Positions 11,514-19,144 of a stretch of DNA of 64,000 nucleotides are shown in pieces; position 1 is the first letter of the stretch; each line of letters begins with the position of its first letter. The DNA is from Escherichia phage AV111, in sequence record OR352941.1; one strand, 5' to 3'. Made by a program: the position numbers and the translations under genes. The notes beneath the pieces were generated by a model. The model was given only the letters and a program-made list of their open reading frames with translations, ran no database searches and had not been told where the DNA came from.

Positions 11514-13333
11514 TATCCTAGCATCCAATCTTTACGGAGTTCAGGGTCGTTACCCATGAGCATTTCAAATAGTTCTTTCCAATTTTCAGGAAGTTTAACT
11601 ACGTCGTACACAGGGTTTTGAATCATTTCTTTATATTCATCTCGCTGAAGTGAGCCCAATCCCTTGATGTATCGAATACTATGCTTAGGCAGTGTATCTT
11701 TAACTTCTTCATACTCAGCTACAGTATAAAACCATTTTTGAGTTTTGCCAATTTGTGCAATAATTACAGGCGTTTTAACAAAGCGAATACGTCCTTGTTC
11801 AAACAATTCAGGCCAATTACTAAAGAAAGCAAGCAAAGCCGGATAAATGCTTCCAAGACCGTCATGATCGGCATCGGTCATAATTGCAATATTACGATAG
11901 TTCGTATTCTCTGCCTTTTCACCAAGAATAAGACCTGTGATAGCACAGATATCAAAGAGCTCTTTGTTCTTCATCATATCAGCATATGACATACCCCAGC
12001 TATTCATCACCTTACCACGTAATGGGAATCCGCCGTGTAGTTCACGGTCACGAACATCAATGAGATAACCAATTGCCGAATCACCTTCTGTTAAGAACAA
12101 TGTTGTATCTGCATCTTTACCACATTGGTTAGCTTTAATATGCTTATGAACCTTAGCTTTAGTTGCCTTTTTAGCTGCTTTAGTTTCTGCAGCCTTTTCT
12201 GCTGCCAATTTACGAGCTAATGCTGCTTCAACAATAGGCATAATCAAGGCTTCGTTTTTAAGAAGTGCCTGAGCAATTTTCTTAGCATCTAATTGGATAT
12301 GATTACGAATATCACCATACGTTGACGTTAAACGTTCTTTAGTCTGAGAATCAAAACGCATGTTGCTCATGTCTCTAATAAACATCAACATTGTGAGACA
12401 TTCTTTAACACGAGCTTTAGTGACTTCAATACCCTTATATTTCTTTTTAATACCTGGCAAAAGATGTTCGCAGATATCATCCATTACGCATTCAACATGA
12501 TGACCGCCGTTTTTAGTATGGATGTTATTCACATAAGTTAAATGACGGAAGCCATCTGGTGATGTTGTGAATGCTATAGAGACTTTATCATTTTCTTGAA
12601 TGATGTTATCTTCACCAAATTGTTTAGCAAATCGTTTAAAATTACCATCAACCTTTTTACCATTAAATGTGAACTTGATATCAGGATAAACGACTGCCAA
12701 TGTTTGAAGTCGATCTAAAGTAATATCTAAATAAATTTGAGATAAATTATGCTCTTCAAATGAAGAGAAATCAGGAGTGAAGATTACTTTAGTGCCTTTA
12801 CATTTAGATTTCTTAGAAGACCATGATTTGTTTTCCATTCCGTTTGAACAGTTAACAGTGATTTCATTTTCGCCATCTGACGTGATGCCTGTAAACAACG
12901 TAGAGAAGATATTAGTTAAACTACTCCCGACGCCGTTCATACCACCAGTCTTGCGTTCAGAATCATCACCAAAGTTACCACCAGCCTTTGGAATAGTCCA
13001 GGCTGCTACAGGCCCAGGAATTTGTTCACCTGTTTGGTCGGTAACTAAACCTTGAGGAATACCACGTCCGTTATCTTCCACCGAAACTTGATTATTTTTA
13101 ATTTGCACGTCAATTTTATTTGCAAACTTAAATGATGTACGAATAGCTTCATCAACCGAGTTGTCAATAATCTCATCGATTAATTTAACCAGACCAGGAA
13201 CATATTCAACTTGTTGATATTTACCAAACAAAAAACGCTCGTGGGCTTCTTTGGCCGAAGAACCAATATACATGCCACTACGTTTCTTAATATGTTCTAC
13301 ATCTGACAGTACCTTAATTTCATTTTTAATCAT
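11513..13333 (-). CDS. 39: DNA topoisomerase II large subunit gp39 (fused 39+60 ORF)
   Basis: 606 aa GyrB-like; MIKNEIKVLSDVEHIKKRSGMYIGSS matches T4 gp39; single ORF covers the region split into 39 and 60 in T4. Confidence 0.93.
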   Translation of the reverse strand: MIKNEIKVLSDVEHIKKRSGMYIGSSAKEAHERFLFGKYQQVEYVPGLVKLIDEIIDNSVDEAIRTSFKFANKIDVQIKNNQVSVEDNGRGIPQGLVTDQTGEQIPGPVAAWTIPKAGGNFGDDSERKTGGMNGVGSSLTNIFSTLFTGITSDGENEITVNCSNGMENKSWSSKKSKCKGTKVIFTPDFSSFEEHNLSQIYLDITLDRLQTLAVVYPDIKFTFNGKKVDGNFKRFAKQFGEDNIIQENDKVSIAFTTSPDGFRHLTYVNNIHTKNGGHHVECVMDDICEHLLPGIKKKYKGIEVTKARVKECLTMLMFIRDMSNMRFDSQTKERLTSTYGDIRNHIQLDAKKIAQALLKNEALIMPIVEAALARKLAAEKAAETKAAKKATKAKVHKHIKANQCGKDADTTLFLTEGDSAIGYLIDVRDRELHGGFPLRGKVMNSWGMSYADMMKNKELFDICAITGLILGEKAENTNYRNIAIMTDADHDGLGSIYPALLAFFSNWPELFEQGRIRFVKTPVIIAQIGKTQKWFYTVAEYEEVKDTLPKHSIRYIKGLGSLQRDEYKEMIQNPVYDVVKLPENWKELFEMLMGNDPELRKDWMLG

Positions 13334-13355
13334 GTTGTCTCCTCGTTATGAAGGT

Positions 13356-13380
13356 ATTCTATCATCCGAAATCTAAAGCA
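13356..13380 (-). promoter_or_regulatory. MotA-dependent middle promoter for gene 39 (MotA box TGCTTTA, 12 nt, -10 TAGAAT)
   Basis: read from sequence; fits the T4 middle promoter pattern. Confidence 0.55.
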
Positions 13381-13384
13381 AAAA

Positions 13385-13395
13385 GGGCCGAAGCC
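13385..13395 (-). terminator. short GGC-UUCG-GCC hairpin plus U5, downstream of ORF 13397..13822
   Basis: seen in sequence; weak stem. Confidence 0.4.
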
Positions 13396-13396
13396 A

Positions 13397-13822
13397 TTAT
13401 TTAAATTTAATTTTCTGAAGTGCATCAATTGCAGCCAGGCGCCCTTGTTCACTTTTAACTGTAATGACCACATCGCCTGATACGATCACCGAACCATCAA
13501 CAAATTCTATAGAGCCTTTTTTGAAATCGACAGCTGTATCTGGTTCCTGAACTTCTTCAAAGAATTTAAATTCTGCACCATAAAGCATAATATCACCTTG
13601 CATACTATGAATAGTTCGGCCATAATCGCCTACGGCTTCTACAGCAATAACCGAAACACCGTAACCAATCATCTCTTCCACAATAAAATCTTTGGACAAT
13701 AAAGTAGTATGCAGATTAGTATTAAGACGTTTACCAGTTGTATTAAGAATTCTCAAGAAATTATCTTCCTGCCCTTTGATAATACGATATTTCTTACCAA
13801 CTTCAAAACCTTTAAAAGCCAT
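13397..13822 (-). CDS. hypothetical protein (141 aa)
   Basis: ORF in track, ATG start. Confidence 0.5.
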   Translation of the reverse strand: MAFKGFEVGKKYRIIKGQEDNFLRILNTTGKRLNTNLHTTLLSKDFIVEEMIGYGVSVIAVEAVGDYGRTIHSMQGDIMLYGAEFKFFEEVQEPDTAVDFKKGSIEFVDGSVIVSGDVVITVKSEQGRLAAIDALQKIKFK

Positions 13823-13824
13823 AA

Positions 13825-14004
13825 TTAACCCTTCTTAAGTAAGTCGTAAAAACCACCGTTCACATGTTTAGGAGCAGAAACCCGACGAGTAGACAGACGA
13901 TGACATTCAGGGCAAACATCGTTTTCTCGTTCAGAAATCCTTTTAATTTTTTCATATTCATGTCCGCAATCTTCAGATTGGCATTTATAGTCGTATAACG
14001 GCAT
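13825..14004 (-). CDS. FmdB-like zinc-ribbon protein (59 aa)
   Basis: [18 protein letters not shown]...CPEC; ATG overlaps upstream stop (TAATG); below ORF-track cutoff. Confidence 0.55.
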   Translation of the reverse strand: MPLYDYKCQSEDCGHEYEKIKRISERENDVCPECHRLSTRRVSAPKHVNGGFYDLLKKG

Positions 14005-14435
14005 TATTGTTCCTTAAAGTGAGCTTTCAACATTTGATACAAAGACCATGCCTGGTCGCTATTTTCGATAGTAATCGACATCACAGGAAATTCAGACAAT
14101 TCATCAAGTTCTCCAGAGTCTTGCTCTTCAGACGCTTGATATGGATTTCCTACTTCATCGAAGAACTCAGCTTCGCATGTAGAAAGCCAGATAAAGTTTT
14201 CATCAAGGATATCACCACCTGTAGCGTATCCGACCATGCCAGTAGATGTCACAATTTTAGTAGGACGTCCAAGATGGTCAACATCTAATACTTTAAACGG
14301 TTCCATGCCAAGACGTCGTGCATAAATCCCATTATCAGTGTGGTCTTTAATAAACTCTTCTTGGGCACGTTTATCTATAAATTGATACCATGAGTTAACG
14401 CGGAATTTATTAGCCATTAGTAAGTTTCCTTCCAA
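14004..14435 (-). CDS. hypothetical protein (143 aa; start may be internal)
   Basis: ORF in track. Confidence 0.5.
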
Positions 14436-14644
14436 TAAGTTGTACCGTTTTCAGTGATTTCACGGAAGATACCATAGATAGGCATTTCATCGCCGAGTTT
14501 TTCGTAAACGTAAACCACTTCTGTGTAGCATAAAAATTCGGTCCAGTTTTTCTGTACAACAACTAAATCAGGATTAAACAGAACATCTTCAAACTCATCG
14601 ATGTTTGAATCAGTAGTTACGTTTTTAATGATTTGACGTTTCAT
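14417..14644 (-). CDS. hypothetical protein (75 aa)
   Basis: ATG at 14644 with AAGAGGAG RBS; track ORF over-extended into the promoter. Confidence 0.5.
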
Positions 14645-14672
14645 AATATTCTCCTCTTGTTTTGATAGGTCT

Positions 14673-14701
14673 ATAGTATCATAGACCATAGTTGTTGTAC
14701 A
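14673..14701 (-). promoter_or_regulatory. early promoter (-35 TGTACA, 17 nt, -10 TACTAT) inside hairpin GGTCTAT-N6-ATAGACC
   Basis: read from sequence. Confidence 0.5.
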
Positions 14702-15226
14702 TCATTTTAGCAAAATAAAATCAACTTGTTCTGCCAATGAACGTCTAAACATTAATTGACATCTTCCGAGGATGAAATCAGGTGCTTCATAGACCGCTAT
14801 GTAGTATCCTTTGGCTTTCAGGAGTTCAACATCCACCTGGTCATCAAACCATGCATAAACCGCGACAACACTTTCAAATCCAAAATAGAACTCTTGAGCC
14901 CAATCTTCGTTCAATTCAAATGTGTGCTCAACTCTATAGTATCTTAAGATATTTTGTTCAAGGAGTTTGTCTTCATTTACTGTAGGACGATTAGGGACAT
15001 TATAGTTGTCGCCGTGATGGTAGAAGTTACCTGAGAGTATTCCATGCTTATCAAGGAACTCCCATGTTTCTTCAGAGTTGTCGGTGCCTGACCAACCGTA
15101 CGGCGAGCGAGGTTCTTTATTCCAAGAGGTTTCCCAAATTCTGACGGCTTTACCATCTTCGATAGCAATTCCTGGTAATGATTCACGTTGAGTACAAAAA
15201 CTACGTTCTACGCGGTAAACTAACAT
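14702..15226 (-). CDS. hypothetical protein (174 aa)
   Basis: ATG start; promoter and RBS upstream. Confidence 0.55.
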   Translation of the reverse strand: MLVYRVERSFCTQRESLPGIAIEDGKAVRIWETSWNKEPRSPYGWSGTDNSEETWEFLDKHGILSGNFYHHGDNYNVPNRPTVNEDKLLEQNILRYYRVEHTFELNEDWAQEFYFGFESVVAVYAWFDDQVDVELLKAKGYYIAVYEAPDFILGRCQLMFRRSLAEQVDFILLK

Positions 15227-15252
15227 ATTATTCTCCTCTGGTTGATGTGGTT

Positions 15253-15281
15253 ATAATATCAAAACCAGAGGAGAAGTAAAC
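15253..15281 (-). promoter_or_regulatory. early promoter (-35 GTTTAC, 17 nt, -10 TATTAT); spacer arm pairs with the RBS
   Basis: 11-bp perfect inverted repeat TTCTCCTCTGG/CCAGAGGAGAA spanning 15231..15275. Confidence 0.55.
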
Positions 15282-15285
15282 AACT

Positions 15286-15705
15286 TTATGCAAAAGATGC
15301 TGGACAATATTTTTTGATTTGGAACTCAGGAACTACCATGAACTGTCCAGCGAAAACGATGTTATAAAGCTTAACACCATCTTCTACCCATTGGTCCGAA
15401 ATAAAACCAGCAACTTGATTCGTTGTCCACGGTGTTCCATCTGTTGCCGCAGCAATGGTGAACTCGTGGTCTTTTACAACTAAAACCGATCTGCACAGTT
15501 TCCATTTGAACGCGCGTTCTTCTGGCTCGATGAATTGGCTTTTAACGTAACCAATGTTACCATCAGCGTCACGAACTTTAACTTCGTTACGTCCAAAAAC
15601 CGGATCACTCACAGAAAGAACTTCGACCAACTTACCAGCAACTTTAGAGCGAGAAGCATCTGATACGTGTACATAATCACCAATAGAGAGATTTGCAATA
15701 TTCAT
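15286..15705 (-). CDS. hypothetical protein, DQW(V/I)EDG paralog family member A (139 aa)
   Basis: shares N-terminal and C-terminal motifs with the next two genes. Confidence 0.6.
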   Translation of the reverse strand: MNIANLSIGDYVHVSDASRSKVAGKLVEVLSVSDPVFGRNEVKVRDADGNIGYVKSQFIEPEERAFKWKLCRSVLVVKDHEFTIAAATDGTPWTTNQVAGFISDQWVEDGVKLYNIVFAGQFMVVPEFQIKKYCPASFA

Positions 15706-15714
15706 AATAATTCC

Positions 15715-16212
15715 TTAAGCTTTACGAGGAGACACATAGCGAGTGATTTCAGATTCTTCAACAACTCGGAAGTCACCTAAGAATACAATATTGTATAACT
15801 TTTTACCATCTTCAACCCATTGGTCACTAATGAAGCCGCACATAGTATCAGTTTTGCTTGGATAACCGTATTCGTCGATGTAATCAAATTCTTTATCGGT
15901 TATAAATTCAACGCCTTTGCAAAGGGCCCATTTGAACTGTGTAGTAGGCTCAACGATATCGTTTGAAGCAAAGTGTGCAGGTGCAACTTCTTCGCTTGAA
16001 GCAAATTGGACTCGTATATGTTTTTCCAGGAATTTAGGACTTACGTAAGCATACTGGGCATCTTGTCCGCCAAAACTCGGGATGATTCGAACTTTAACTT
16101 CTTTAACACGTCCCATGCCATTAGTACGAAGCCCTGCTACTTCAACCAGACGACCTGCAGCTTTAGAACGAGAAGCAGGAGATACACGAAGGATTTCACC
16201 AATAGTAATCAT
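15715..16212 (-). CDS. hypothetical protein, paralog family member B (165 aa)
   Basis: start moved to ATG at 16212 (MITIGEILRV...) by alignment with paralog A. Confidence 0.6.
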   Translation of the reverse strand: MITIGEILRVSPASRSKAAGRLVEVAGLRTNGMGRVKEVKVRIIPSFGGQDAQYAYVSPKFLEKHIRVQFASSEEVAPAHFASNDIVEPTTQFKWALCKGVEFITDKEFDYIDEYGYPSKTDTMCGFISDQWVEDGKKLYNIVFLGDFRVVEESEITRYVSPRKA

Positions 16213-16242
16213 AATTTCTCTCTCTTTGTTTAAATTGAATTC

Positions 16243-16271
16243 ACTATACTCCATCCATCCTTGGATGTACA
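16243..16271 (-). promoter_or_regulatory. promoter (-35 TGTACA, 17 nt, -10 TATAGT) with spacer palindrome CATCCA-TCCT-TGGATG
   Basis: read from sequence. Confidence 0.5.
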
Positions 16272-16274
16272 ACA

Positions 16275-16769
16275 TTAATTAAGGATATTAACCACAGCAC
16301 TACGTGGAACTACACTAAAATCACCTGCATGAACAACGTTCAGAAGTTCAACGCCGTCTTCAATCCATTGGTCAGTTACCCATCCACTCACTGGTCCTGC
16401 GAACGGACGTCGAATTGAAACAGCTTTACACAACAAATCAGTAGGCTCAATAGGCTTAATCAGAGTACCGTACATACAAGCGATATCCATATCAAAGTGG
16501 AGACCATCTTTAACAGGTGCTTCTTCAATCAACAGTTCAAAGTCTGTGCTTGGAAGGGCGGTAGTAGAAATTGTACCGTATGAATTTTTAATTTCTAAGA
16601 ATAACCAAGGGCCTTCCGTTTGTTTGATGAAGTTAACAATAGTGAAACTATTACCTTGAGTGGCACCTAAAATTTCACAAAACTTTTCATAAGCTCGCAC
16701 TGAAGCACCATACCAGTTAATTTGTTTTTCGTCTTTCAGGATGTAAGTAGCCGTAGTATTGATATTCAT
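16275..16769 (-). CDS. hypothetical protein, paralog family member C (164 aa)
   Basis: C-terminal GWVTDQWIEDG...AGDFSVV motif shared with A and B. Confidence 0.6.
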   Translation of the reverse strand: MNINTTATYILKDEKQINWYGASVRAYEKFCEILGATQGNSFTIVNFIKQTEGPWLFLEIKNSYGTISTTALPSTDFELLIEEAPVKDGLHFDMDIACMYGTLIKPIEPTDLLCKAVSIRRPFAGPVSGWVTDQWIEDGVELLNVVHAGDFSVVPRSAVVNILN

Positions 16770-16800
16770 AATGTTTTTCCTGTTTAGTTAAGATAAAAAG

Positions 16801-16830
16801 ATTATACTACAACCAAGGATGGTTGTAAAC
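16801..16830 (-). promoter_or_regulatory. promoter (-35 GTTTAC, 18 nt, -10 TATAAT) with spacer palindrome CAACCA-AGGA-TGGTTG
   Basis: read from sequence. Confidence 0.55.
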
Positions 16831-16835
16831 TGGTT

Positions 16836-17513
16836 TTATCGCTGTTTTACACTTAACGGGTCAGGATTCTCAGGGACATCTTCAAGGCCAAGCGCATAAC
16901 GCTGAGCATATTTTAACATCAAAATATCTTTAGCACAATCATGAATACTATCATGGGCAACGAATCCTTTTAGCGTACCCATCGGTAATGGACACATACT
17001 TAATCCTCGTGTCAACGAGTAAGCTTCGATTGCCGTACGAATATCACGTTGAGCCCAGAATTTAACCGGTTCTAATTTATCAGTATCAATATCTGGTTCA
17101 AGAACACCTTCATCACGATAGAGGTCACGAATCAAATCGACCAAGATCGGGAAGTCAAAGCTCATACCACGGCACCACATCTGTGATTTCCATTGGTCAA
17201 CTTTATTAGCTCGACAATAATCTAAAAAGATTTTAATGCCTTCAAGCGTAGTGACATCGTCTTCAGACGGGGCCAAGTTTTTACGTGCTTCTGCTGATTG
17301 TTCTTTCCACCATTTCATAGTGGATTTAGCGAAAACTCGCTTCCCTTTCTGAGAAGCTAAATTAAATTTAATTCGCTTACCTCGTTGAACAAGTTCTTCA
17401 AATGATTCAACAACTTCAGGGTCGGAATTATATGCAATAACCGCAAGGTCAATAACAGCCGCTTTTGATGTATTGCCGAATGTTTCAAAATCTATAATAA
17501 CATCAGTGCTCAT
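16836..17513 (-). CDS. dexA: exonuclease A (DEDD 3'-5' exonuclease)
   Basis: 225 aa; IIDFETFG motif; synteny with dda. Confidence 0.85.
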   Translation of the reverse strand: MSTDVIIDFETFGNTSKAAVIDLAVIAYNSDPEVVESFEELVQRGKRIKFNLASQKGKRVFAKSTMKWWKEQSAEARKNLAPSEDDVTTLEGIKIFLDYCRANKVDQWKSQMWCRGMSFDFPILVDLIRDLYRDEGVLEPDIDTDKLEPVKFWAQRDIRTAIEAYSLTRGLSMCPLPMGTLKGFVAHDSIHDCAKDILMLKYAQRYALGLEDVPENPDPLSVKQR

Positions 17514-17522
17514 AATTTTCTC

Positions 17523-18836
17523 TCAAATAAAATGGACGTCAAAACGACCACGAGTCGTGCCGACATATAGTAATTGTTTGGCTAATTCTGAATCGGCATA
17601 ATGGATACACGGTGTATAAACAAAGGCCGTGTCAACAGATATACCCTGGGCCTTATGGAAGGTTGATACAGGTAGTGCCTTCACCTTAGTGAACATGCGT
17701 TTAGCATCCCAGAATTCGCTCCATGGAGCTTTACCGCCTTTATTCCAGAATTTGTATGTTTCTGCGGTCTTAGCCAAAAACAAATTGAATTTATAAAGCT
17801 CTTCTTCAGAAGAAATAACCTTTATATCCTCTCGGACGTATTCCTCATCATCACCATATGTTTCTACTGTAAGATTCCAGTATCGTATCATATATTCGCC
17901 TGAAACACCACGTGCTTTAACGAATGTAGACGTTTCTACAGCATCTCGAATACGAACGAATTGCCCATTATTGAAAAGCATTTCGGTCATATTTTTACCG
18001 TCTAGCTTATATGTCTTAGTAAATGGCTCTTGTAGAACAATGACTTCGTCTTTAATAAATGGTTTTTCTGTTTCAAGAAGTTTTCGGCGAATAATTGAAT
18101 TTAACTTGTCCACCGACTTATTTGTGAATGCCATCATTCGATTTTCGAAAAGGTCTTCAGGAGTTTTAACGACGTTAAAATAGTTCATCATATACGATTT
18201 AAGGTCTGTATATCCATGAACGCCGTGCCCATCAACTACTTTATCGTAAATCCATTTGCCATTACGAATATCAGTCGCAACATCAATAATTGGTGCATTG
18301 CTACGTTTAACTTCTGTAAGGTTGCATTGCACGAAGTCTTTGTGAGTGAAGAAAGGACTTAGATACGCAGTTGATTCGCCTGGGTCTACCGGACGAATCT
18401 GGCATCGGTCGCCGATTCCAATTACTGTACACCATTTAGGGATACTAGCTAACATTATTTTAAACAGAGAACGGTCGCACATTGACGCTTCATCAAATAA
18501 CAGTACACGACACAAGGCTAAGTCGGGAACCTTTTTCTGTTCAAACAATACGTTTTCTTCGTATGTAGTTGGGTTGATTTTAAGAATGCTATGAATAGTC
18601 GATGCTTCTTGACCCGCAAGTTTGCTTAGAACCTTTTTAGCGGCATGTGTAGGGGCTGCTAAAATAATACCTGATTCTCCTGAAGAAATAAGAGCTTCAA
18701 CAATAAATCTAGTAAGGGTTGTTTTACCTGTACCAGCCGGTCCATTAATAGTTACATGATGTTTCTTTTCTTTAATAGCTTCCATAACAACGTTGAAGGC
18801 GTTTTTCTGGCCTTCAGTCAAATCATCAAATGTCAT
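17523..18836 (-). CDS. dda: Dda DNA helicase (SF1)
   Basis: 437 aa; Walker A GPAGTGKTT; length and synteny match T4 Dda. Confidence 0.9.
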   Translation of the reverse strand: MTFDDLTEGQKNAFNVVMEAIKEKKHHVTINGPAGTGKTTLTRFIVEALISSGESGIILAAPTHAAKKVLSKLAGQEASTIHSILKINPTTYEENVLFEQKKVPDLALCRVLLFDEASMCDRSLFKIMLASIPKWCTVIGIGDRCQIRPVDPGESTAYLSPFFTHKDFVQCNLTEVKRSNAPIIDVATDIRNGKWIYDKVVDGHGVHGYTDLKSYMMNYFNVVKTPEDLFENRMMAFTNKSVDKLNSIIRRKLLETEKPFIKDEVIVLQEPFTKTYKLDGKNMTEMLFNNGQFVRIRDAVETSTFVKARGVSGEYMIRYWNLTVETYGDDEEYVREDIKVISSEEELYKFNLFLAKTAETYKFWNKGGKAPWSEFWDAKRMFTKVKALPVSTFHKAQGISVDTAFVYTPCIHYADSELAKQLLYVGTTRGRFDVHFI

Positions 18837-19144
18837 CGTAAAGTCCCTGCAATTGGAATACTAACAATACGGCCAGTGTCCAGGATTCGTTGATACAATC
18901 TTTGCGTCTCCGCATCTAGTTTAATGTGTTTCATTTCAAGCTTATTAAACCAGAACTTACGCGGAGTTTCGACCATTCTTAGAACTCCCATTTTTAAATC
19001 TGTTTTATACTGTGTTTTCAAAGTATCGAAAACTTTATCTGCAATATCCTTTCTAAAAAATACTGCAGGACGATGCTCATCAAGTGGAACCGGGACAGTA
19101 AATCCTTCCATATCTCGATAAACTATTGCATATACATAAACCAT
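18833..19144 (-). CDS. hypothetical protein (103 aa), dda.1 position
   Basis: ORF in track; ATGA overlap with dda. Confidence 0.5.
   Translation of the reverse strand: MVYVYAIVYRDMEGFTVPVPLDEHRPAVFFRKDIADKVFDTLKTQYKTDLKMGVLRMVETPRKFWFNKLEMKHIKLDAETQRLYQRILDTGRIVSIPIAGTLR

Follow-up and report, generated by a model that had tools for sequence, protein, structure and literature searches.

Three tandem MotB/MotB.1-family genes between dexA and cef in an RB69-like phage

Gene content and order at the locus

The window analysed here, a stretch of 64,000 nucleotides from Escherichia phage AV111 (OR352941.1), is from a Mosigvirus, i.e. an RB69-like T4-type phage, as judged by its sequence; its identity to Mosigvirus genomes is 95-97%, and in these the equivalents of the genes considered below are labelled MotB, modifier of transcription or transcription regulator. 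Three tandem ORFs that an earlier note on this DNA had picked out are confirmed on the minus strand, at 15286-15705 (139 amino acids), 15715-16212 (165 amino acids) and 16275-16769 (164 amino acids). They represent, respectively, a second and shorter copy of motB that is orthologous to RB69p010, motB itself and motB.1. The gene order in the window is dda, dexA, the trio, a motB.2 homologue and cef, which is the dexA-cef location of the MotB family, and transcription after dexA runs through motB.1, motB and then the second motB copy. The same note had placed the genes in a plastic accessory region of the phage, which is indeed where they lie.

The set and order of the genes are identical to those of RB69p010-p013 (MotB-like, motB, a 29-aa peptide and motB.1), the RB69 order being dexA, motB.1, motB, MotB-like, motB.2, cef, and RB69 has been reported to carry two motB genes and one motB.1 (PMC7827196). 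In T4 the order is dexA, motB.2, motB.1, motB, cef, with motB.2 flanking the motB genes on the opposite side from that found in the window. The motB.2 homologue of the window (174 aa, 14702-15226, minus strand) matches PHROG 1106 (E=6.5e-45) and aligns with T4 MotB.2. It was considered as a fourth paralog and rejected, for although a MAFFT alignment hinted at a common C-terminal motif, hhalign against the MotB and MotB.1 profiles returned a probability of only 0.1-0.2%. An Rfam scan of positions 13000-19000 gave only a sub-threshold Y_RNA match within coding sequence, at 24.8 bits where the cut-off is 38, and this was taken as chance.

Mechanical calling of the middle gene produces an ORF of 186 aa, with an ATG at 16275 that overlaps the upstream stop codon as TAATG. 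This start was rejected, there being no ribosome-binding site at that ATG. The 165-aa start is preferred because it aligns with the N-terminus of T4 MotB, because a GAGAG-type ribosome-binding site precedes this start alone, and because a promoter-like site falls inside the longer extension. The 139-aa gene starts 9 nt after motB and has an AAGGA ribosome-binding site.

Relationship among the three proteins

The tandem paralogy proposed for the three genes is borne out far above chance, in that all three proteins exceed the gathering cut-off of 25 bits for PF17613 (MotB), with 127.1 bits for the 165-aa protein (E=7.7e-37), 86.4 bits for the 139-aa protein (E=2.6e-24) and 36.8 bits for the 164-aa protein (E=4.4e-09). 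The HMM-HMM comparison that the earlier note had recommended was run with hhalign, and the MotB and MotB.1 profiles matched with a probability of 99.8%. For that note, an alignment below significance would have overturned the relationship. With Pfam E-values of 4e-09 to 8e-37, this profile-profile match and conserved homologues that number in the hundreds, the similarity is clearly significant, and it is vanishingly unlikely that it arises by chance or low complexity among unrelated ORFs.

The three proteins are not equally close. In BLASTP comparisons the 139-aa and 165-aa proteins align over their full length (99 bits, 41% identity), and each of them matches the 164-aa protein at 42-45 bits over the last 29-36 residues only. 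The first two match PHROG 1671 (MotB-like; E=9.7e-53 and E=8.7e-63, respectively) and the third PHROG 2333 (E=1.7e-81). The C-terminal DQW(V/I)EDG block described earlier is present in all three proteins, with the consensus G(F/W)(I/V)(S/T)DQW(V/I)EDGxxLxN(I/V)VxxGxFxVV. The N-terminal RSKxAGxLVEV segment, which had likewise been ascribed to the whole trio, is found in the 139-aa and 165-aa proteins and is absent from the 164-aa protein, whose N-terminal domain is unrelated. The full-length two-domain architecture of MotB is thus present in the 165-aa protein (positions 2-157 of the 162 in the PF17613 profile) and in the 139-aa protein. The 164-aa protein matches profile positions 82-153 only, through its residues 88-159, and is for this reason filed under MotB.1 rather than MotB. 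Its homology to T4 MotB.1 extends over the N-terminal domain, as seen from PHROG 2333, from the alignment and from the 143-aa T4-type MotB.1 (P0111), with which it shares 47% identity across 99% of its length. A common C-terminal domain joined to unlike N-terminal domains has been described for MotB and MotB.1 (PMC7827196).

How far does the family extend? A search for relatives beyond the T4-type phages, with a profile of the C-terminal domain against 1.84 billion representatives, returned only 28 matches, two of which (repeat proteins of 842 and 934 aa) were discarded as spurious matches to repeats. A sequence search of the PDB gave no match. Among the relatives, chimeric MotB proteins and swaps of N-terminal and C-terminal domains occur. 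The family, its domain logic and the RB69-type pattern of copy number are already published, and the trio is real but ordinary. The earlier view that no function could be assigned from the sequence does not stand, given PF17613, PHROG 1671/2333, relatives annotated as MotB and the characterised MotB of T4.

Domain architecture and fold

Each product, of approximately 15-19 kDa, would consist of two beta-barrel domains, and the AF2 models contain two barrels with a low-confidence linker between them. The common C-terminal domain spans some 55-75 residues around the core DQW(V/I)EDG...LxN(I/V)V...G.F.VV; in the two MotB copies it is predicted to be coupled to a KOW/SH3-like N-terminal domain bearing RSKxAGxLVEV, and in MotB.1 to a different, LSm-like barrel.

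The 165-aa MotB orthologue has a KOW-like basic N-terminal domain, a disordered acidic linker and a C-terminal domain. The N-terminal domain, residues 1-64 (IGEILRVSPASRSKAAGRLVEV...; 16021-16212, minus strand), carries a net charge of +6 and is modelled as five strands with a short helix ahead of the last strand; in T4 MotB, KOW has been assigned to residues 6-45 (PMC7827196). Residues 66-90 are disordered in the AF2 model. The C-terminal domain, residues 91-165 (15718-15942, minus strand), has a net charge of -4 and is modelled at a pLDDT of 88-95 as strands 100-112, 118-134, 137-144, 147-152 and 156-159, with a helical turn ahead of the last strand. The protein is 79% identical to RB69 MotB (P0024) and 45% identical to the 162-aa T4-type MotB cluster (P0090).

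Both the 165-aa and the 139-aa proteins resemble T4 MotB in having a KOW-like N-terminal domain (RSKAAGxLVEV) followed by the C-terminal domain (DQWVEDGxKLYN(I/V)VF), and their genes share with it the dexA-cef position and an early-type promoter context. They differ from it in sequence (approximately 45-48% identity), in the presence of two copies here against one in T4, in the length of the linker and in charge. T4 MotB is basic, with a pI of 9.2, whereas the 165-aa protein, with a pI of 6.2, is close to neutral and the 139-aa protein near neutral to mildly acidic, the net positive charge having gone from its N-terminal domain.

Could the 139-aa gene be a motB duplicate in decay, redundant and without a separate function? 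The copy is shorter, it is without the long linker and the N-terminal net positive charge, and no promoter of its own was found. However, the ORF is intact and of equal length among Mosigviruses, RB69 and NBG1 included, the protein keeps all the invariant residues of the family, the dN/dS ratio is 0.02-0.16, and further phages combine a C-terminal domain of this type with different MotB N-terminal domains (P0036, P0098), all of which makes decay highly improbable. Purifying selection acts on all three paralogs (dN/dS of 0.02-0.25), with values of 0.09-0.25 for motB and of 0.12 for motB.1 against NBG1.

The 164-aa MotB.1 orthologue is predicted to be composed of an LSm-like/SH3-like N-terminal domain, a low-confidence linker and a MotB-type C-terminal domain, and is modelled by AF2 at a pLDDT of 78.5, with segment 86-107 below 50. 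The N-terminal domain, residues 1-85 (16515-16769, minus strand), is unrelated to that of MotB and does not align with the other two paralogs; its model contains strands 8-11, 42-49, 55-61, 67-73 and 80-82 and a helix at 26-37. The N-terminal domain of T4 MotB.1 has been modelled as a five-stranded barrel of LSm-like type, with GoF and Frd.2 as relatives (Kim et al. 2025, PMC12152347), and the strand pattern seen in the AF2 model here is compatible with such a fold. The C-terminal domain, residues 108-164 (EPTDLLCKAV...GWVTDQWIEDGVELLNVVHAGDFSVVPRSAV; 16278-16448, minus strand), is recognised as MotB-type from the alignments and the hhalign match, and is modelled at a pLDDT of 85-89. The protein is like T4 MotB.1 in the modelled N-terminal strand pattern and in its MotB.1-type C-terminal domain (GWVTDQWIEDGVELLNVVHAG), and is unlike the 143-aa T4-type MotB.1 in having approximately 20 extra residues in the linker (HFDMDIACMYGTLIKP). 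It is strongly acidic, with a net charge of -8. A protein of this kind could act on RNA through its LSm-like domain, in an Hfq-like manner, rather than on DNA or the nucleoid. The modelling of the T4 domain, the compatible strand pattern and an acidity that argues against bulk coating of DNA all speak in favour of such a role, which is nevertheless considered unlikely.

What type of fold does the shared C-terminal domain adopt? The published assignment for MotB is an OB-fold (PMC7827196), but the models suggest an SH3/Tudor-like barrel instead. For T4 specialists the useful point is that the models are indicative of two SH3/Tudor-like barrels and not of a KOW plus an OB domain. Comparable tandem SH3-like barrel proteins include the tandem Tudor of 53BP1, KOW6-KOW7 of SPT5 and Agenet/SAWADEE, although identity to these is only 10-18% and the Foldseek matches are marginal, with a best E-value of 8e-04; the likeness is one of fold only and implies neither a methyl-lysine cage nor a chromatin context. 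Most members have an acidic or neutral C-terminal domain, which is found fused to several N-terminal barrels, including the MotB-type KOW-like and MotB.1-type domains and those of longer forms of 180 and 250 aa. It is conceivable, albeit rather unlikely, that the domain, instead of being a DNA-binding OB-fold, is a module of Tudor/SH3-like type through which the proteins bind a partner in common or form hetero-oligomers, and that the three paralogs co-assemble to tune remodelling of the nucleoid and of H-NS.

Promoters and stem-loops

Promoter-early stem-loop (PeSL) cassettes consist of an intergenic sigma-70-like early promoter, with the T4-group sequence TTTACW-N17-TAYWAT, and a stem-loop in or around it, and are found in the hyperplastic region (Arbiol 2010, Comeau 2014). 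Palindrome-bearing promoters had been attributed to two of the three genes, which holds for motB.1 and fails for motB. The early-type motB.1 promoter, TTTACA-17-TATAAT (16801-16829, minus strand), matches the consensus at 11 of 12 positions and has a hairpin of 8-9 bp in its spacer (16807-16828, fold z = -2.48), and a promoter is annotated at the equivalent position in NBG1. It is a putative PeSL-type cassette, fitting the published description in both promoter and stem-loop. The site ahead of motB, TGTACA-17-TATAGT (16243-16271, minus strand), overlaps the end of motB.1 and is weaker and promoter-like, its 9 of 12 matches being at the background level of shuffled sequence. It differs from PeSL cassettes in having no significant stem-loop, since its palindrome of 5-6 bp is within chance (z = -0.16).

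The strongest palindrome nearby, with arms of 13 nt at 15231-15243 and 15263-15275, belongs not to the trio but to the motB.2 homologue downstream of it, the promoter of which is TTTACT-16-TATTAT with the 13-bp inverted repeat (15231-15280, minus strand; z = -4.70). In this hairpin the Shine-Dalgarno sequence GAGGAG is paired and the -10 box lies in the loop. Equivalent motB.2 hairpins are present in RB69 (z = -6.31) and, despite the different position of the gene, in T4 (z = -5.05). PeSL cassettes are also characterised by terminator or attenuator activity and by recombination between cassettes (mini-circles), for which a motB.2 gene lying on opposite sides in T4 and in the window, with an equivalent hairpin-promoter in each, is indirect evidence at most. 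This promoter likewise matches PeSL cassettes in both respects, and by their sequence the elements of the locus that combine promoter and stem-loop are recognisable as known PeSL cassettes. No MotA-box middle promoters or TATAAATA late promoters were found in the intergenic regions.

Function

With family membership, domain architecture, synteny, purifying selection and promoter-like sites observed directly at the locus, what might the trio do? T4 MotB, the only characterised member, binds DNA tightly and non-specifically, whether modified or unmodified, and is toxic when expressed; it copurifies with H-NS and StpA, and burst size is doubled (PMC6070864). It alters H-NS footprints (PMC7827196), and nucleoid compaction is credited to it in a paper citing Son et al. 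2021. Two findings in T4 count against the explanation given below: knockdown of T4 motB barely alters the phage transcriptome (PMC7827196, PMC6070864), and deletion of T4 motB.1 has no phenotype under laboratory conditions (PMC12152347).

By homology with T4 MotB, DNA binding, interplay with H-NS and a division of labour among the paralogs may be attributed to the trio. The sigma-70-type early promoters would lead to transcription of the three genes right after infection. The 165-aa MotB would then coat DNA without sequence specificity, chiefly via its basic N-terminal domain, compacting the nucleoid and remodelling complexes of H-NS and StpA with DNA so as to give a modest rise in phage yield. 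Tight non-specific binding may not carry over quantitatively, since the 165-aa orthologue has an identity of only approximately 45% with T4 MotB and a charge close to neutral. Its diverged partners, with the same C-terminal module, would be the 139-aa copy, which is near neutral as well, and MotB.1, which is strongly acidic; the roles of these two are probably other than bulk coating of DNA. The sharp differences in charge argue that coating is a property of the N-terminal domain and not of the conserved C-terminal domain, and they speak against redundancy among the copies. The tandem array would have arisen through duplication and domain shuffling in the hyperplastic region, with the genes bracketed by PeSL cassettes. 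Taken as a whole, this explanation, combining MotB-family identity, a two-barrel architecture, a T4 MotB-like mechanism and an origin by duplication and shuffling, is considered very probable.

The suggestion of a host-interaction or anti-defence function holds in its first part, in the broad sense, and finds no support here in its second. A trio expanded for anti-defence or counter-immunity would be in keeping with genes that are early, non-essential and located in a hyperplastic region, with variation in copy number and domain combinations among relatives, and with a synonymous divergence that is locally high (dS of 0.25-0.37 against 0.04-0.07 in dexA). Relief of H-NS silencing can, moreover, be viewed as countering a xenogeneic-silencing barrier of the host (PMC7827196). 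Yet no such activity of MotB or MotB.1 was found in the literature searched, nothing matched in PADLOC, which covers defence systems, or in NCBIfam, and the characterised member acts on DNA and H-NS rather than on an immune system, so that an anti-defence expansion is very unlikely.

Comparison with the T4 and RB69 records

The motB.1 gene is a single intact ORF in the window, whereas two single-base insertions break it into pieces of 132 aa and 29 aa in the RB69 reference; RB69 MotB has 151 aa against 165 aa in the window. The T4 reference genome (NC_000866.4) encodes a MotB.1 of 119 aa owing to a one-base insertion unique to this record, and this form lacks the final 30 residues of the C-terminal domain. 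Both this 119-aa form and the 29-aa peptide of RB69 look, from the sequences, like single-base insertion artefacts or strain-specific lesions. The published plasmid expression and structure modelling of MotB.1 used the 119-aa reference form and therefore a protein in which these 30 residues of the conserved domain are missing. Were the paralogs to hetero-oligomerise through this domain, the null phenotype of plasmid-expressed T4 MotB.1 might be due in part to a truncated artefact that is missing half of the module.

The MotB family members and their relationship

The three minus-strand ORFs that the earlier note had placed at 15286-15705, 15715-16212 and 16275-16769 are present at those coordinates, and encode proteins of 139, 165 and 164 amino acids, respectively. 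All three products pass the curated Pfam cut-off for PF17613 (MotB), with E-values of 2.6e-24, 7.7e-37 and 4.4e-09 in the same order, and the similarity among them is genuine. In pairwise BLASTP the 139-aa and 165-aa proteins are 41% identical across their full length (99 bits), and the 164-aa protein matches each of these over its final 29-36 residues only, at 44-62% identity. It is by virtue of these last residues that the C-terminal block proves, on alignment, to be common to all three proteins. The N-terminal segment RSKxAGxLVEV, which had likewise been attributed to the whole trio, is found in the 139-aa and 165-aa proteins and is missing from the 164-aa protein. The latter matches PHROG 2333 (E=1.7e-81), is 47% identical over 99% of its length to P0111, a 143-aa T4-type MotB.1, and is, as judged from its sequence, the orthologue of T4 MotB.1. 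The HMM-HMM comparison that had been suggested as a check also joins the two types, with an hhalign profile-profile probability of 99.8% for MotB against MotB.1, a score that is inflated by the two hybrid sequences that the alignments have in common. The 174-aa motB.2 homologue (14702-15226, minus strand) was ruled out as a family member by an hhalign probability of 0.1-0.2%.

Both the family and its arrangement are already known from 2021, when Patterson-West et al. reported that MotB and MotB.1 have a conserved C-terminal domain in common and different N-terminal domains, that both genes are present in many Tevenvirinae, and that RB69 possesses two motB and one motB.1 (PMC7827196). The tandem similarity seen earlier in the sequence is therefore real yet partly mis-described, and is accounted for by this known family and arrangement. 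In several GenBank relatives the trio genes are already labelled as MotB or transcription regulators.

Gene order, promoters and hairpins

The phage is T4-type and belongs to the genus Mosigvirus (RB69-like), with 95-97% identity across 14600-17600 to Escherichia phages ECO26.1, ECCR664, vB_EcoM_NBG1, ST0 and HX01. In transcription order along the minus strand, dda (17523-18836) is followed by dexA (16836-17513), the trio, the 174-aa gene and then homologues of cef and goF, an order identical to that of the RB69 reference. The T4 order is dexA, motB.2, motB.1, motB (locus L003, 1654-3162), whereas in the window (at 14702-16769) and in RB69 it is dexA, motB.1, motB, motB', motB.2, where motB' is the 139-aa copy. 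Thus motB.2 and its hairpin-promoter lie on opposite sides of the motB genes in T4 and in the window and RB69. Promoter-early stem-loop (PeSL) elements are promoter and stem-loop cassettes found in hyperplastic regions of T4-type genomes, for which promoter and terminator activity and a role as mediators of gene shuffling have been demonstrated (PMC2839356, PMC4122927); the change of side is as expected from such cassette shuffling.

Two of the three genes had been credited with palindrome-bearing promoters, of which only that of motB.1 stands. This early promoter, TTTACA-17-TATAAT (16829-16801, minus strand), matches 11 of 12 consensus positions, carries an 8-9 bp hairpin in its spacer (z = -2.5) and corresponds in position to a promoter annotated in the NBG1 record. 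The site upstream of motB, TGTACA-17-TATAGT, matches the consensus no better than background, and its small palindrome is not above chance (z = -0.16). The 139-aa gene begins 9 nt after motB, behind an AAGGA ribosome-binding site of its own, so that the two are presumably co-transcribed. No MotA-box or late-promoter motifs were found in the intergenic regions. A stronger hairpin, a 13-bp perfect inverted repeat (within 15231-15280, minus strand; z = -4.7), precedes the 174-aa gene, with the bases that directly follow the -35 box pairing with the Shine-Dalgarno sequence GAGGAG and the -10 box in the loop, such that the ribosome-binding site would be hidden in read-through transcripts, though not in those started at the promoter. 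Equivalent motB.2 hairpins with a different inner stem are present in T4 (z = -5.05) and RB69 (z = -6.31).

For motB itself, mechanical extension of the frame reaches an ATG at 16275, which overlaps the motB.1 stop codon as TAATG (extension 16213-16275) and would give 186 amino acids. The 165-aa start is preferred, since the protein then lines up with T4 MotB from its N-terminus and the gene is preceded by a ribosome-binding site; the longer form was rejected as a true N-terminal extension because the upstream ATG lacks such a site and the extension contains a promoter-like site. Database lengths for this gene vary from 151 to 197 aa with the start chosen, a spread that looks like inconsistent annotation rather than genuine N-terminal extension.

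Domain architecture and proposed function

AlphaFold2 models, built from 26-28 homologues with a mean pLDDT of ~78, predict for the 165-aa MotB a five-stranded barrel at the N-terminus (residues 1-64), then a linker that is disordered (66-90, pLDDT <50) and a C-terminal barrel with strands at 100-112, 118-134, 137-144, 147-152 and 156-159 (pLDDT 88-95). In this model DQWVEDG forms the hairpin joining strands 2 and 3 of the C-terminal barrel, and strands 3 and 4 are made up of LYNIVFxGxFxVV. In the model of the 164-aa protein, the N-terminal barrel includes a helix, residues 86-107 are a linker of low confidence, and the C-terminal barrel is as in the 165-aa protein. The C-terminal domain of MotB has been labelled an OB-fold on the basis of HHpred (PMC7827196). 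In the Foldseek structure lists, no match is named as an OB-fold domain, whether of the cold-shock or another type; the list for the 164-aa protein does include, lower down, chains of full-length EF-P, a protein with OB domains. The model also places a short helical turn between strands 4 and 5 of the C-terminal barrel, in the fashion of SH3-like barrels. Together, the absence of OB-described matches and this turn suggest that MotB consists of two SH3/Tudor-like barrels, a reading that rests on predicted structures and on matches that come without residue ranges, and the models lend no support to the OB-fold label.

Residues 91-106 of the 164-aa protein (16452-16499) carry the linker motif HFDMDIACMYGTLIKP, modelled at low confidence except for one helical turn. 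The motif turns up again in the two hybrids P0160 and P0161, N-terminally in the 180-aa class, and in a subset of MotB.1-type proteins, whereas the T4-type MotB.1 of 143 aa lacks it. It may represent a portable linear motif.

Expression of T4 MotB is toxic; the protein is a tight, sequence-independent DNA binder that is copurified with H-NS and StpA, changes H-NS footprints and causes burst size to double (PMC7827196, PMC6070864); a citing paper also credits Son et al. 2021 with compaction of host and phage DNA by MotB. By homology, the 165-aa protein would be an early nucleoid-associated protein that, like T4 MotB, coats DNA and remodels H-NS-DNA complexes. MotB.1 gave no phenotype in the only published tests (PMC12152347). 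The computed net charge is +6 for T4 MotB (pI 9.2), ~0 for the 165-aa protein (N-terminal domain +6, C-terminal domain -4), -2 for the 139-aa copy and -8 for the 164-aa MotB.1 (pI 4.65), marked differences which suggest that the paralogs are not interchangeable. Most members have an acidic or neutral version of the conserved C-terminal domain, which makes the KOW-like N-terminal domain, being basic, the likelier part to coat DNA.

Family size, hybrids and selection

A search of 1.84 billion representative proteins with a profile built from the trio's C-terminal domains recovered only 28 clusters, two of them spurious repeat proteins. The remainder span 43-251 aa, with the domain at the C-terminus or within ~15 residues of it, joined to a KOW-like N-terminal domain, to an LSm-like one or within longer 180- and 250-aa forms. 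Two hybrids (P0160 and P0161) combine a MotB-type N-terminal domain with a MotB.1-type C-terminal domain. In two others, P0036 (L005 1373-1894) and P0098 (L006 3001-3492, and also L007 and L008), the C-terminal domain of the 139-aa copy follows an N-terminal domain and linker of 165-aa or T4 type. Their loci have a single motB in a T4-like order of dexA, motB.2, a 181-aa family member, motB and cef. The chimeras P0036 and P0098 fit a history in which motB paralogs or alleles have recombined.

With dN/dS values of 0.02-0.25 against RB69 or NBG1, all three trio genes are under purifying selection, and none is thus a decaying copy. The dS of the 139-aa copy is 0.26-0.32 and that of the 165-aa copy 0.37 against RB69, several-fold above the 0.04-0.07 of adjacent dexA; the exception is the 165-aa copy against NBG1 (0.06). 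This pattern fits a locally mosaic history.

Frameshifted motB.1 reference sequences

In the T4 reference, motB.1 (L003 2292-2651 = NC_000866.4 7291-7650) is a 119-aa ORF that a single additional G, directly behind DQWI, brings to an early end (caatggattGGaagatggcgtTGA); the remainder of the conserved C-terminal domain is encoded in the next frame, as IEDGVELLNVVHAGEYSVVPRSAVVAILN. Allele-specific searches confined the extra G to AF158101.6 and NC_000866.4, and found the in-frame allele in 119 records, 11 of them from other T4 isolates; T4T and MT984581 annotate motB.1 as 432 nt, 143 aa. A 2025 study, which makes no mention of a frameshift, used commercially synthesised motB.1, cited NC_000866.4 for its T4 constructs and gave a MotB.1 monomer of 13.8 kDa (PMC12152347), matching the 119-aa reference form. 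Similarly, RB69 motB.1 (L004 2877-3373 = NC_004928.1 8376-8872) is annotated as a 132-aa ORF and a 29-aa 'peptide' because, compared with the window and NBG1, single bases have been inserted at two points (TT to TTT and GGT to GGTT). On this comparison the two are parts of one gene, which explains the 29-aa peptide that the 2021 paper (PMC7827196) places in 'Category 3'.
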